A stretch of DNA of 64,000 bases from Escherichia coli (lineage in GTDB: Bacteria > Pseudomonadota > Gammaproteobacteria > Enterobacterales > Enterobacteriaceae). This document shows, piece by piece, positions 9,001 through 15,000 of this stretch. The stretch lies in assembly GCF_003334335.1 (NCBI RefSeq), contig NZ_QOWQ01000004.1; one strand, 5' to 3'. Position numbers: made by a program. Numbering within the stretch: position 1 is the stretch's first letter; the number at the start of each line of letters is the position of its first letter.

Positions 9001-12000
9001 CAGTGGTTTCCGCTACGGCTTCCTCGGTATCAATGATGTTCCGCTGGTCACTACCTTTGGCGTACTGGTGGTCTTTATTGTGGCGTTTTATTTGATCTGT
9101 TGGTCGCTGATCCAACGTGGACGTGGTTTGCGTAGCTAAGGCTATTTCCTCTCCTCTGGATTTGGGGGAGAGGAGTTTTGACGGCTATCACCCTTTATCA
9201 ACAATGGTCAGGGTAGACTGATTTTCGGCTAAGGAGGAAGGCGATGTTAGGTTGGGTAATTACCTGTCACGATGACCGGGCGCAAGAGATACTGGATGCG
9301 CTGGAGAAAAAACATGGGGCACTTCTTCAGTGCCGGGCCGTGAATTTCTGGCGCGGATTAAGCTCTAATATGCTCAGCCGCATGATGTGCGATGCTCTGC
9401 ATGAAGCGGACTCTGGTGAGGGTGTCATCTTCTTAACCGATATAGCCGGAGCGCCACCGTATCGCGTGGCTTCATTATTAAGCCACAAACACTCCCGTTG
9501 CGAAGTGATTTCTGGTGTCACGTTACCGTTAATTGAACAGATGATGGCTTGCCGTGAAACCATGACCAGTTCAGAGTTTCGCGAGCGTATTGTCGAACTG
9601 GGTGCGCCGGAGGTGAGTAGTCTTTGGCACCAACAACAAAAAAATCCGCCTTTCGTCCTCAAACATAATTTGTATGAGTATTAACCCGCGATTCTGATGG
9701 CGCTTTTGCTACAATAAAAGCGTTGTTTCACCCTCGGTTATTTTTTCATGTACAAACAAGCTGTTATTCTCCTGCTGATGCTGTTTACCGCAAGTGTCAG
9801 TGCCGCGTTACCTGCCCGTTATATGCAAACCATCGAAAATGCTGCGGTCTGGGCGCAAATTGGTGACAAGATGGTGACCGTGGGGAATATTCGGGCCGGA
9901 CAAATCATTGCCGTGGAGCCCACTGCCGCAAGTTATTACGCATTTAATTTTGGCTTTGGCAAAGGTTTTATCGATAAAGGTCATCTCGAGCCGGTTCAGG
10001 GGCGACAAAAAGTTGAAGACGGTTTGGGCGACCTCAACAAGCCGCTGAGTAATCAGAACTTAGTTACCTGGAAAGATACGCCGGTCTATAACGCGCCGAG
10101 TGCGGGAAGTGCGCCATTTGGGGTACTGGCGGACAATTTGCGCTACCCGATTTTGCATAAACTGAAAGACAGGTTAAATCAAACCTGGTATCAGATCCGT
10201 ATTGGCGATCGACTGGCCTATATCAGCGCACTGGATGCCCAACCCGATAATGGCCTGTCGGTGCTAACCTATCACCATATTCTGCGCGACGAAGAAAACA
10301 CCCGTTTTCGCCATACTTCGACGACCACATCGGTACGCGCTTTCAATAACCAGATGGCCTGGCTGCGTGACAGGGGATACGCGACACTGAGCATGGTGCA
10401 GCTGGAAGGCTACGTGAAGAATAAGATCAATCTCCCTGCGCGAGCGGTGGTGATTACCTTTGATGATGGCCTCAAGTCGGTGAGCCGCTATGCGTATCCT
10501 GTGTTGAAACAATATGGCATGAAGGCGACGGCGTTTATTGTTACCTCACGCATCAAACGTCACCCGCAGAAGTGGAACCCAAAATCGCTGCAATTTATGA
10601 GCGTTTCTGAGCTTAACGAAATTCGTGATGTATTTGATTTCCAGTCACATACCCATTTTTTGCATCGGGTAGATGGTTATCGCCGACCCATATTACTGAG
10701 CCGTAGTGAGCACAATATTCTGTTTGATTTTGCACGTTCACGCCGCGCTCTGGCGCAATTTAATCCGCATGTCTGGTATCTTTCGTATCCGTTTGGCGGA
10801 TTTAATGACAACGCCGTGAAGGCAGCAAACGATGCCGGATTTCACCTGGCGGTGACAACCATGAAAGGCAAAGTAAAACCGGGGGATAATCCGTTGTTAC
10901 TAAAACGACTTTATATCTTAAGAACGGATTCGCTGGAGACGATGTCGCGGCTGGTGAGTAACCAGCCGCAGGGATAACAATCAAGCAACCTGTACCGGAA
11001 TCGCTTTCGCGGTACGTTTCATTTCATTGTCGCCTTCAAAATAGGCGACGTTGGGTCGCCAGGTGCGAGCTTCTTCATCTGGCATGGTAACGAAGCTGGC
11101 GATGATGACAATATCGCCGACACTGGCGCAGTGGGCCGCCGCACCGTTAACAGAAATAATTCTCGAACCGCGTTCTGCCGCGATGGCATAAGTGGAGAAA
11201 CGCTTGCCGTTGGTGACATTCCAGATATCAATGGCTTCGTTTTCGAGAATACCGGCTGCGTCAAGAAAATCCTGGTCAATGGCGCAAGAACCTTCATAGT
11301 GCAGGTCCGCATGAGTCACTTTCACGCGGTGGAGTTTGCCCTGCAGCATCGTGCGAATCATAACTTCTACCTTTCTACCCTGTCGTTAACGAAGCAGGCG
11401 ATGCCTGCTTTGAGGAAATTCTCACGCAGTATTGCCCGATTTTTGTTTAGTGTCTACTCATCTGACGGCATTTGCGTCAGCAGTTTGCGTACCGCGCCGA
11501 AGCGTGCCATGTATCGCCTGTAACGAATTGATATTTCTCTGAACGCTGCTCGGTAAACAATAAAGAGGTGGCTGACGATAGCGCGCCTTGACTGGATACT
11601 GCCTTCACGCAAAGCCACACGGAAGACAGGGAAGATGGATGCACCGAGTACCACACCGCATGACGCGGTATTTAAACAATTTTTAATGCATGCGGAGACG
11701 GCTCGCGACTTTCTGGAGATACATTTGCCAGTGGAATTACGCGAACTTTGTGACCTCAACACGCTTCATTTAGAGTCGGGGAGTTTCATTGAAGAGAGCC
11801 TGAAAGGACACAGCACGGACGTGCTCTATTCCGTGCAAATGCAGGGCAATCCCGGTTATCTGCATGTTGTGATTGAACACCAAAGCAAGCCGGATAAGAA
11901 AATGGCCTTTCGCATGATGCGTTATTCTATAGCCGCCATGCACCGGCATCTGGAGGCTGACCACGATAAGCTGCCGCTGGTGGTGCCGATACTGTTTTAT

Positions 12001-15000
12001 CAGGGCGAGGCCACACCTTATCCGCTATCAATGTGCTGGTTTGATATGTTTTACTCGCCGGAGCTGGCGCGACGCGTCTATAACAGTCCTTTCCCGCTGG
12101 TGGATATCACCATCACACCGGATGACGAAATCATGCAACATCGGCGGATTGCGATTCTCGAACTACTGCAAAAACATATTCGCCAGCGCGACTTAATGTT
12201 ATTGCTTGAGCAACTGGTCACGCTGATCGACGAAGGGTACACTAGCGGAAGTCAGTTAGTTGCCATGCAAAACTATATGCTGCAACGCGGTCATACTGAA
12301 CAAGCGGATTTGTTTTACGGTGTGTTGAGAGACAGGGAAACGGGAGGGGAGTCTATGATGACGCTGGCGCAGTGGTTTGAAGAGAAAGGGATTGAGAAGG
12401 GGATTCAGCAGGGAAGACAGGAAGTAAGTCAGGAATTCGCCCAGCGTCTTCTGAGTAAAGGAATGTCTCGGGAAGACGTTGCAGAGATGGCAAATTTACC
12501 TCTTGCTGAGATTGATAAGGTAATTAACCTTATTTAAGTTACCTGTGTTATGACAGATGACGTGGGGTAAATTAATAACTGGCGCCATCAGCCGTAGCGC
12601 CAGTTAAGTATTACGCCAGCTCGACCATTTTGTTGTCGATCAGGCGAGCATCGCCAAGCCAGGCGGCTACCAGAATTACTGCCCGTTTGCTGGTTTCAGA
12701 AACTTCCAGCAATGTGTCGGCATCGCGAATCTGAATATCATCGGCGCGGAAGCCTTTTTCATTCAGTTCTTGCCCCGCAATGGTAATAATTTCATCGAGA
12801 TCCCGTTCCCCAGCCTGCAATTTGTCAGCAATCGAACTTAAAACTTTGTACAGACCAGGCGCAATTTTGCGTTGTTCCGCCGTCAGATAACCGTTACGGG
12901 AACTTAGCGCCAGACCGTCTTTGGCGCGCATAATTGGCACACCGACAATCTCAATATCGAAGCCCATATCGGCAACCATTTTGCGGATCAGCGCCAGTTG
13001 CTGAAAATCTTTTTCACCGAAGCAGGCGATGTCCGGCTGGACCAGGTTGAACAGCTTGCTGACAATAGTCGAAACGCCGCGAAAATGTCCCGGACGGCTG
13101 GCACCTTCCAGCATGGTCGAAAGGCCAGGAACGTCAACGTAAGTGTGGGTTTCAGTACCGTTCGGGTAGATCTCTTTTACCGAAGGGGCGAAAACTAAAT
13201 CCACTTTACGTTTGTTTAGCTTCTCGCAGTCCTCCTGCAAGGTCCGTGGATAACGAGCCAGATCTTCCGGGCGGTCGAACTGCATCGGGTTAACGAAAAT
13301 ACTGACGACGACCACATCGGCGCGGGCTTTGGCTTCGTCGACCAGCTTCATATGGCCATCGTGCAGGTTACCCATGGTAGGCACCAGCGCCACGCGCTTG
13401 CCTTCCATACGCAGGCGGCGAATTTGCTGACGCAGCAGCGGCAGGGTTTCGATAATTAACACAACGTGACTCCTTAATGGAAACTGTGTTCTTCGCCCGG
13501 ATAAACGCCGGACTCCACTTCAGCCATATACTGCCGCACAGCCGCGCGGATGTCGCCCGTTTCGGCGAGGAAATTTTTAGCGAATTTAGGAATGTGACCG
13601 CCGGTAATACCAAAGGCGTCGTGCATCACGAGGATCTGCCCGTCAGTGACGTTGCCTGCGCCAATGCCAATAACCGGGATCGCCAGTGCTTCGGTAATAC
13701 GTTTTGCCAGTTCAACCGGCACGCATTCCAGCACCAGCAGCTGTGCCCCAGCAGCTTCTAAGGCTAATGCATCGCTGAGCAGTTGATCGCCCGCTTCATC
13801 GCCGCGCCCCTGAACTTTGTAGCCACCGAAAATATTCACTGACTGTGGTGTTAAACCTAAGTGACCACATACAGGAACGGCACGTTCGGTCAGCATTTGT
13901 ACGGTTTCTACCAGCCACTCACCGCCTTCAATTTTGACCATGTTAGCACCGGCACGCATAACCGTTGCGGCGTTTTCGAAGGCTTGTTCCGGCGTGGCAT
14001 ACGCCATAAACGGCAGGTCAGCCAGCAGCAGGCAGTTTGGTGCGCCGCGACGTACGGCGGCAGTGTGGTAGGCGATATCGGCAACGGTAACTGGCAGGGT
14101 GGAGTCGTGCCCCTGAACCGTCATGCCCAGCGAATCGCCCACCAGCATGACGTTAAGCCCTTCATCAGCAAAGAGTTTGGCGAAGCTATAGTCATAAGCG
14201 GTGATGGTCGCGAAACGTTTTTTTTCCTGTTTGTACTTCTGCAGTAAGGAGATGGTGGTCGGTTTCATAACGTATCCTGATAAATTGATGTTGTGCTGTC
14301 TGGCATTTTATCAGTCACATTGGTGGGGGCAATGATTTATCCGTAGCAGCACTGCCAGAAGGTGACAGTGCTGCTACGTTATCAGGGATAGGTTACCTGG
14401 AAAGTACTGGTGGCTTTAAATTCGCCGGGTTCGATAGCAATATTCCCGTCTTGCTTTAATGTTGCCTGGAAATGAAGAGGCTGTGATGTGCCGTTACCTT
14501 GATTAGGGTAAACCCCATCGGAGGTGTCATCTTCGGTTTCATAATCTATATAAACAGAATTCGTATCATTAGGTTTTAATGTCATTAGCGGATTTTTACT
14601 GGTTGCTAAACCTTCAATGAGTACGCCAACGCCTTTGGCGGCAGTGCTTCCAGTAAGCGTATTACCAAGCAGTTGTGTGTTTTGAGTACCTACTTTTCCA
14701 GTGACGAGTTTTGTTTCAATATTACGCACACGAATACAATTCTGAAGCGAGATATCAAAGGGAACAGGTGAAGCGCCATTTTTAATTGTCCCAGAGCTAT
14801 ATTCTCCCATTCTAACCGTTGAACCATTGACTGATGGCCCGGTAAGTATGGAGGTAAAACATGTTGGTAAGGTTAATTTGACATTATTCAGTGTGAAATT
14901 GACATAAATGTGGTTGCTGTGATCTACAACTTTTGTACCAGGACTGTAGGCCTTAAACGAATAAAGGTAATTTGATGAACTGGATAACTGGACTTGCTGA

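Follow-up and report, generated by a model that had tools for sequence, protein, structure and literature searches.

The pan locus and the gene between panD and panC

The subject of this analysis is rpnC, a gene which, in a 64,000-nucleotide (nt) stretch of Escherichia coli DNA (contig NZ_QOWQ01000004.1; the whole stretch is hereafter called "the window", and its positions are used throughout), lies between panD and panC, and which we read as part of a toxin/intragenic-antitoxin cassette that probably entered the panBCD cluster by insertion. Upon sequence comparison, the 2.5-kb panD-panC stretch showed 100% identity to E. coli K-12 derivatives, the open reading frame (ORF) map and the MG1655 annotation gave the same gene layout at the pan locus, and the ORF found between panD and panC is the one annotated as rpnC (b0132; yadD) in K-12. 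It is oriented opposite to panB, panC and panD, is separated by 273 bp from panD (11362-11634) and by 73 bp from panC (12538-12610), and has yadE, panD, panC, panB and a fimbrial operon as its neighbours; the order, spacers and orientation given by an earlier, sequence-only reading of this DNA match the ORF map exactly. The features relevant here are as follows:

9748-10977, + strand: yadE (ORF map, MG1655 annotation)
10981-11361, - strand: panD, aspartate 1-decarboxylase, a flanking housekeeping gene (ORF map; annotated as b0131 in MG1655)
11362-11456, - strand: ancestral panC-panD spacer, now panD promoter and leader (aligned to empty sites)
11457-11634, + strand: cassette 5' region (not present in empty sites)
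11635-12537, + strand: rpnC (yadD), encoding RpnC-L of 300 amino acids (aa) (ORF map, PF04754)
12342-12351, + strand: internal Shine-Dalgarno (SD) sequence GGGAGGGGAG for the nested gene (sequence reading)
12355-12537, + strand: rpnCS, nested in frame, 60 aa (MMTLAQWFEEKGIEKG...) (TIGR01784 C-terminal match; published translation data)
12382-12413, + strand: 12-nt tandem repeat, 2.7 copies, encoding KGIE/KGIQ (TRF)
12538-12610, no strand assigned: cassette 3' end, comprising the C-terminus relic AATAACTGGCGC and the hairpin 12576-12606 (repeat search, allele comparison)
12611-13462, - strand: panC, pantothenate synthetase, convergent with rpnC (ORF map, annotation)
13474-14268, - strand: panB, first gene of the pan cluster (ORF map, annotation)

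Residues 7-207 of RpnC match Pfam family PF04754 (Transposase_31, YhgA-like; E=3e-87, model positions 1-201 of 203), and the protein scores 298 bits against TIGR01784 ("Rpn family"), whose cut-off is 52. Pairwise alignment with RpnA (49% identity overall) places D10, D62, E81, Q83, R93 and D164 of RpnC opposite D11, D63, E82, Q84, R94 and D165 of RpnA, i.e., all six of the residues whose individual mutation altered RpnA activity (PMC5350276) are conserved in RpnC, and the PDDE motif (P162-D163-D164-E165) is kept in the same alignment. Within a 30-sequence alignment, D10, D62, E81, Q83, R93 and D163 are invariant and P162 and D164 (the counterpart of RpnA D165) nearly so (at least 90%), E165 not being among the conserved positions. 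Nuclease activity has been shown biochemically for RpnA, and overexpression of RpnC is toxic, induces the SOS response and raises RecA-independent recombination 2.9-fold (PMC5350276). Judging from these residues and the family match, RpnC-L would be a Mg2+-dependent PD-(D/E)XK DNA endonuclease, toxic when unchecked. A close and well-described system, RpnA (YhgA) of K-12, for which the crystal structure of RpnA-S is available (PDB 7TH0), has its catalytic residues, PDDE motif and internal start in common with RpnC, but resides at feoC-bioH rather than at the pan locus, and the first helix of the small domain is longer in RpnC by two 4-aa repeats (eight residues).

For annotation purposes, two genes should be distinguished at the locus, rpnC-L and, nested in it, rpnC-S, the latter of which escaped the sequence-only reading, as did the 12-nt repeat array inside rpnC. 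An in-frame ATG at 12355, preceded by the strong SD sequence GGGAGGGGAG at 12342-12351, opens a 60-aa product that by itself matches the C-terminal part of TIGR01784 (E=1.8e-15). The arrangement of an internal SD and ATG is present in eight of the ten alleles examined, RpnA included, with an SD-like GGAG/AGGAG 6-9 nt upstream of the internal ATG being kept in the RpnA, Salmonella, Citrobacter and Yersinia alleles. The 12-nt repeat, present in 2.7 copies in the window, reaches 6.8 copies in strain EcPF14 (TRF), and the repeat tails among homologues range from EEKGIQQG (a single unit) to about nine repeat units; some E. coli strains also have a second, downstream small copy (rpnCSs), which K-12 is without. 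All of this is shared with the RpnL/RpnS intragenic antitoxin system described by Zhong et al. in 2023 (the same internal SD/ATG, 60-aa C-terminal product, variable four-residue repeats, and rpnCSs in some strains; PMC10400941). That study established translation of RpnCS from the internal site by ribosome profiling and SPA-tag immunoblotting, and reported, using a dinD-lacZ assay, that RpnCS blocks the SOS induction caused by RpnC-L only when both have an equal number of the repeats, so that repeat number sets the specificity of long and short partners (PMC10400941).

Empty sites, junctions and ends of the inserted unit

Neighbourhoods of panD from 80 Enterobacteriaceae species genomes, onto which PanB, PanC, PanD, YadE and RpnC were mapped, comprised 78 loci with both panC and panD. 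At 67 of these, from at least 15 genera (Citrobacter, Klebsiella, Raoultella, Enterobacter, Lelliottia, Kluyvera and Pluralibacter among them), panC is directly followed by a co-oriented panD 31-287 bp away and there is no rpn, the shortest gap (31 bp; Enterobacter-type loci) being operon-like. Ten loci are occupied by rpn: six Escherichia lineages (85-96% aa identity to RpnC), two Pseudocitrobacter (61-63%), Salmonella enterica subsp. diarizonae (57%), and the metagenome-assembled genome UBA5654 (65%), where the gene is apparently frameshifted (L026 4854-5716, two tblastn pieces). The one locus left, that of S. arizonae (L019 5586-6000), has a 415-bp panC-panD spacer which is a deletion remnant of the cassette, keeping its 5' region and the last 42 rpn codons (the small-domain tail, 86% identical to diarizonae), with the nuclease domain gone and no intact ORF; it was also the only positive when rpn remnants were sought at E<=0.1 in the 29 longer "empty" spacers. 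The broken frame in UBA5654, as well as S. enterica CP034074.1 (L104 1314-2500), where no gene is called in a gap of the same size, are probably pseudogenes or assembly errors.

The sequence-only reading had proposed an old insertion here, which the 67 empty loci with panD adjoining panC support, as rpnC is evidently not present at this position in all relatives; the notion of it being ancient and effectively core, however, holds within Escherichia and fails within Enterobacteriaceae.

The empty-site spacer of Citrobacter and Klebsiella is ~93 bp long, reads TAG, ACAGGGGTTAAAAATCGGGCAATACTG, a hairpin, AAGGTAGA and ATG in this order, and aligns only to 11362-11456, the panD-proximal 95 bp of the 273-bp spacer of the window. 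At the empty sites, the panC stop codon TAG constitutes the first three bases of TAGACA, which a sigma-70 scan of the window recognises as the -35 element (11451-11456) of a panD promoter-like site on the - strand, with AATACT at 11428-11433 as the -10 element and a 17-nt spacer. At the occupied sites, TAGACA is preserved, now at a distance of about 1.15 kb from panC, whose new stop codon is TAA in Escherichia and TGA elsewhere. As the ancestral spacer comprises only 11362-11456 and the panC stop lay within TAGACA, the inserted unit therefore spans ~11457-12610 of the window (about 1.15 kb), i.e., 178 bp of upstream sequence, the gene, and a 73-bp tail with a hairpin; its right junction is identical in four genera. 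The "non-coding" flanks noted earlier were thus measured correctly (273 and 73 bp), but consist mostly of inserted-cassette and not ancestral sequence. The insertion was tolerated because it fell between a stop codon and the already existing panD promoter.

That no clear terminal repeats could be seen by eye was confirmed by a computed repeat search over 10900-13000, which returned no terminal inverted or direct repeats, only imperfect 10-24-nt matches at chance level, and no inverted repeat that would pair the cassette ends at ~11457 and 12610. The only clean inverted repeat in that interval is the hairpin 12576-12606 (10-nt arms at 12576-12585 and 12597-12606, 11 nt apart), and the only possible target duplication is that of a stop codon on each side (TAA/TGA on the left, TAG on the right), which, at 3 nt at most, is indistinguishable from chance or selection. 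An insertion sequence (IS) or autonomous transposon was considered for rpnC and rejected, there being no terminal inverted repeats, a single locus and a median of one copy per E. coli genome; neither further copies nor variation in position were found within E. coli, the gene always being at the pan locus in the rows inspected.

Other sequences occur at the same spot. Seven Kluyvera-type loci (L029, L032, L033, L041, L045, L048 and L050, at about 5740-5920) have an unrelated GC-rich ~180-bp insert at this very point instead of rpn, while a Kluyvera-like genome (L091) carries an Rpn cassette at the same junction, and an extra element of 130-200 bp, beginning with ACTCTAAATAATTCAAGTTGCAGGAAGGCGGCAAGCGAGTGA, follows the panC stop and precedes the hairpin in E. 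albertii (L009 about 2620-2760) and Escherichia sp. E1V33 (L005 about 4548-4750), which we take to resemble an enterobacterial repetitive intergenic consensus/intergenic repeat unit (ERIC/IRU) repeat. The point where the panC stop adjoins the panD -35 box has the look of a hotspot at which indels and insertions recur.

As for the ends of the cassette, its 178-bp 5' region contains blocks (TTTGCG.., CCGCCTCGTAAAA, GCTGAC and GATACTG) that are kept in the pan-locus cassettes of four genera and that recur upstream of rpn in other species, at hemL-fhuB and at yjjX-trpR. GCTGAC-N17-GATACT is likely the rpn promoter, the putative rpnC version of which would have CTGACG (11572-11577) as the -35 and GATACT (11595-11600) as the -10 element, 17 nt apart; it matches 8 of 12 positions, which is below the threshold of the sigma-70 scan, and it is from conservation that this promoter is proposed, since the scan of the + strand upstream of rpnC found nothing above threshold. 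At the other end, the hairpin 12576-12606 reads terminator-like on the - strand, with a T-rich tail after it, and is predicted to now terminate panC. A hairpin of the form CTGGCGC..GCGCCAG straddles the rpn stop codon in the Salmonella, Pseudocitrobacter, "Klebsiella sp." genome and C. freundii alleles, and all non-Escherichia pan alleles, as well as the C. freundii one, end in ..WR(G) and a stop within CTGGCGC-TAA-..GCGCCAG. In Escherichia, the hairpin lies 39 nt past the rpnC stop, and the AATAACTGGCGC (..NNWR) in front of it is what remains of the ancestral C-terminus; this explains the 73 bp of non-coding DNA. A covariance-model (Rfam) scan of 10500-14500 at E<=1 returned only spurious eukaryotic microRNA and small nucleolar RNA matches.

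In C. freundii, the cassette occupies all of the sequence that separates the yjjX stop codon from that of trpR. No boundary could be defined for the K. michiganensis hemL-fhuB cassette upon comparison with the window's own site, where the E. coli spacer has a sequence resembling repetitive extragenic palindromic (REP) elements. This fhuB-hemL spacer (38111-38270; 160 bp, REP-like) is the unoccupied counterpart of the cassette site in K. michiganensis (L095 3794-4977), whose RpnC-like protein shows 57% aa identity overall and 67% over the N-terminal 215 residues. It is conceivable, if improbable, that RpnC-type genes travel as a discrete ~1.15-kb cassette with defined ends (TTTGCG block and promoter; CTGGCGC-stop-GCGCCAG hairpin) targeted to gene ends, and just as speculative that its insertion might home on stop codons or terminators by a novel mechanism, possibly driven by the Rpn nuclease, with TAG as a 3-nt target-site duplication; if true, such a cassette would imply an insertion mechanism homing on stop codons or terminators.

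Age, origin and competing readings

Of 5426 complete E. coli genomes, 5420 contain DNA of the nuclease domain at a coverage of at least 80%, with a median of one location each, and rpnC was present in every Escherichia species sampled. The GC content of the gene is 0.488, its third-position GC (GC3) is 0.545 against a background of 0.56 +/- 0.07, and its codon adaptation is about 1.7 standard deviations low. In this check, suggested earlier from the sequence, GC and GC3 do not stand out, and the composition is ameliorated and host-like. Within Escherichia, the N-terminal domain shows nonsynonymous divergence (dN) of 0.008-0.020 and synonymous divergence (dS) of 0.22-0.41, i.e., a dN/dS of about 0.03-0.05, similar to that of panC, which indicates purifying selection on the nuclease domain rather than decay. 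The insertion is old, core to Escherichia, and not core to Enterobacteriaceae. Recent horizontal transfer was also considered and rejected, with both composition and fixation speaking against it. A few E. coli strains have an IS in the panD-rpnC-panC interval, namely IS2 in H1 (NZ_CP029239.1), where an extra Rpn-family fragment annotation suggests that rpnC is split, and IS1A in H32 (NZ_CP073976.1), where the match covers annotations of both rpnC and IS1A, so that strains with the locus knocked out are viable.

The Rpn proteins that share 57-66% identity with RpnC are all encoded between panD and panC at the same junction; they stem from S. enterica, where three types of allele occur (296, 316 and 305 aa), and from a "Klebsiella sp." genome with Kluyvera-like flanks. 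All ten S. enterica contexts sampled via one PanD sequence have the same ~1.19-kb panC-panD interval, with an rpn gene called in nine of them (none in the same-size gap of L104). Similarly distant relatives occur elsewhere, i.e., at hemL-fhuB in K. michiganensis, at yjjX-trpR in C. freundii, and, in another case, on a Yersinia plasmid beside a resolvase and IS91. In a neighbour-joining tree of the N-terminal 215 residues, the pan-locus Rpns form one clade that excludes the three other-locus relatives and RpnA (bootstrap 96/100), within which the Salmonella allele of 305 aa clusters with the Kluyvera-like one and not with the remaining Salmonella alleles (96/100). Between genera, nucleotide identity amounts to 71-75% for the rpnC N-domain, 75-77% for yadE and 79-82% for panC. 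Because the pan-locus alleles are monophyletic and their junctions identical, a single origin at this position is favoured, with subsequent losses and an exchange of alleles between genera. Rpn homologues are rare in phage records, while 4675 plasmid records have them, nearly all at less than 60% identity, the family being highly mobile on plasmids.

Could related Rpn cassettes have instead been inserted repeatedly and independently at one nucleotide position, by a site-specific mechanism akin to homing, with the panC end/panD promoter junction being recognised by the nuclease or by its variable C-terminal domain? Citrobacter is usually placed nearer Salmonella than Escherichia is, and the clean empty sites of Citrobacter and Klebsiella fall phylogenetically between the occupied Escherichia and Salmonella; the N-domains of the Escherichia and Salmonella alleles are 68-72% identical, versus 79-87% nucleotide identity of the flanks; the Kluyvera-like genome is occupied, unlike the eight Kluyvera-type loci compared (six under the name of Kluyvera and two either unclassified or mislabelled), and its allele clusters with a Salmonella one, as stated above; the TAA/TGA and TAG stops could be a 3-nt target duplication; and the cassettes at the two other loci abut stop codons as well. 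Kingston et al., too, favoured two separate introductions (PMC5350276). A clade from which equally distant other-locus relatives are excluded is, however, not what independent captures from a diverse pool predict, DNA cleavage by RpnA shows little or no dependence on sequence (PMC5350276), Rpn genes are not considered to be mobile by themselves, no terminal inverted repeats were found here, and the median is a single copy per E. coli genome. The same pattern is explained by allele exchange through the conserved pan flanks. The panC sliding-window identity in the Kluyvera-like occupied genome is suggestive of a recombination breakpoint at the last 60-70 nt, but not decisive. Repeated insertion thus seems unlikely to us, even if it deserves more credit than the alternatives discussed below. 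The resemblance to homing endonuclease genes and IS consists of a single nuclease gene residing in a conserved housekeeping locus at the same position in several genera; rpnC differs from them in having no intron or intein context and no terminal inverted repeats, a duplication of 3 nt at most, one copy per genome, and a family nuclease reported to be non-specific. Rpn cassettes may reach the same nucleotide position in different genera via exchange through flanking homology or by site-directed insertion.

Two further alternatives we hold to be very improbable. One is that rpnC is ancestral and was lost from the "empty" genomes, nothing having been inserted: deletion does occur, as in S. arizonae, and Kingston et al. 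left out two sequences with large internal deletions (PMC5350276), yet that sole observed loss is imprecise, whereas the 67 empty sites include many with compact spacers where panC stop and panD -35 box overlap, the 31-bp Enterobacter-type gap is typical of an operon, and the spacers searched hold no rpn remnant apart from that of S. arizonae. The other is that rpnC is what erosion has left of a transposase or IS ("ISNCY family transposase"), having no present function, for which one could cite the Pfam name of PF04754 ("putative transposase"), the ISNCY transposase label of the best NCBIfam equivalog match, which nevertheless scores below the curated cut-off (322 vs 583 bits), and the RpnC phenotypes being the weakest among RpnA-D (PMC5350276). 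It is contradicted by an ORF that is intact in 5420 of 5426 genomes, by the low dN/dS within Escherichia together with intact catalytic residues, by the absence of terminal inverted repeats and multi-copy spread, and by the detection of RpnC protein from the chromosome (PMC10400941) and the SOS induction upon its overexpression (PMC5350276).

A proposed toxin/antitoxin cassette within a biosynthetic cluster

The explanation that we prefer as a whole, and to which we would assign a probability of roughly 0.85, is that of a toxin/intragenic-antitoxin cassette inserted into panBCD. According to it, rpnC, a chromosomal member of the Rpn/YhgA-like family, lies on a self-contained ~1.15-kb cassette (~11457-12610) made up of a 178-bp 5' region with its own putative promoter, the 300-codon RpnC-L frame, the nested rpnCS, and the 3' hairpin 12576-12606. 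RpnCS, which consists only of the C-terminal helical dimerisation domain, binds and neutralises RpnC-L, with the repeat array 12382-12413 deciding which short form fits which long form. The point of entry into what was then a contiguous panB-panC-panD cluster, with all genes co-oriented, would have been precisely the panC stop codon, which overlapped the -35 box of the existing panD promoter, so that neither pan gene would have lost expression: panC would now end at the cassette hairpin, and panD would keep its own promoter and leader. Together with its intragenic antitoxin, the RpnC toxin probably serves in defence against phages or other DNA entering the cell; of the "selfish or defence gene" insertion proposed by the sequence-only reading, the insertion has thus held up, and the defence role for RpnC stays at the level of an inference.

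Several observations weigh against this reading in one or another of its parts. The AlphaFold2 model of RpnC, built from the 30-sequence alignment, has a mean predicted local distance difference test (pLDDT) score of 57.8, i.e., low confidence, and was not used as evidence (its N-terminal core follows an H-H-E-E-E-H-E order at pLDDT 65-82 within that low-confidence model); a Foldseek search of the model against PDB gave no match at E<=0.001, and a PDB sequence search with RpnC found none, RpnA alone finding 7TH0. Because the model is poor and the fold search empty, the PD-(D/E)XK fold of RpnC rests on the Pfam match and residue conservation. As to defence, antiphage protection has been shown for the plasmid homologue RpnP2 and not for RpnC (PMC10400941), no PADLOC 2.0 model recognises RpnC (only weak partial matches, at E>=1e-4, to the short C-terminal helix region were obtained), and the neighbours of rpnC are housekeeping and fimbrial genes and no defence island. 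With regard to origin, the tree spans only 215 residues and three confirmed non-pan relatives, dS between genera is saturated or undefined, so that the insertion cannot be dated against its flanks nor vertical and lateral descent separated, and a single origin needs clean losses or inter-genus transfer, the Citrobacter sites being cleanly empty; Kingston et al. preferred two independent insertions, naming a single origin as the alternative (PMC5350276).

Both the location of the gene (2017) and its mechanism (2023) are already published (PMC5350276, PMC10400941). The RpnC (YadD) of Kingston et al. is the same gene (100% identical DNA, same panD-panC position), and these authors compared 32 Enterobacteriaceae panCD segments, 18 with and 14 without rpnC, and discussed the insertion history (PMC5350276). 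What is added here are the exact junction, the cassette ends shared with other loci, the monophyly of the pan-locus alleles and the sample of 78 loci, with the pan-locus tree leaning towards one origin, versus the two favoured previously (PMC5350276).

Some features of the surroundings deserve mention. The convergent rpnC-panC pair is listed as an excludon (overlapping pair) in MG1655 RNA-seq data (PMC12288877), and antisense cross-talk between the two genes is possible. The panD leader contains, between the -10 element and the start codon, a 7-bp hairpin on the - strand (11392-11410; AAGCAGG/CCTGCTT) that is kept across 23 Enterobacteriaceae, be their sites occupied or empty, with compensatory changes in four of its seven pairs (e.g., A-U to G-C in 6 sequences, G-C to U-A or A-U in 7); it may stabilise the mRNA or have a regulatory role, and we know of no function described for it. 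The fimbrial genes adjoining panB (yadC, yadK ..., at 14382-16266 and beyond) have a GC content of 0.37-0.43 versus 0.51 for the window, and in S. enterica (L087) panB is directly followed by folK and pcnB, so that the fimbrial cluster seems to have been inserted next to the pan genes in a second event, separate from that of rpnC. The E. coli plasmid p140_MLI109 (NZ_CP117007.1, 140 kb; L004 4809-5779) carries a truncated yadE, panD and the first 44 codons of rpnC, flanked by IS remnants (ISEc38, integrase-core and IS4 fragments), which looks like an IS-mediated capture of the pan locus. A record titled Chryseobacterium sp. 18061 (L051) has an Enterobacteriaceae-type panBCD-yadE with a 94% identical PanD, and is probably mislabelled or contaminated.

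For annotation, the "non-coding" flanks of rpnC are to be read as parts of the cassette. Taken as proposed here, the locus would be a textbook case of a toxic nuclease/antitoxin cassette sitting in an essential biosynthetic cluster without harm and bringing its own terminator, and one that became a fixed, selected core part of a genus while its partner-recognition repeats kept changing.

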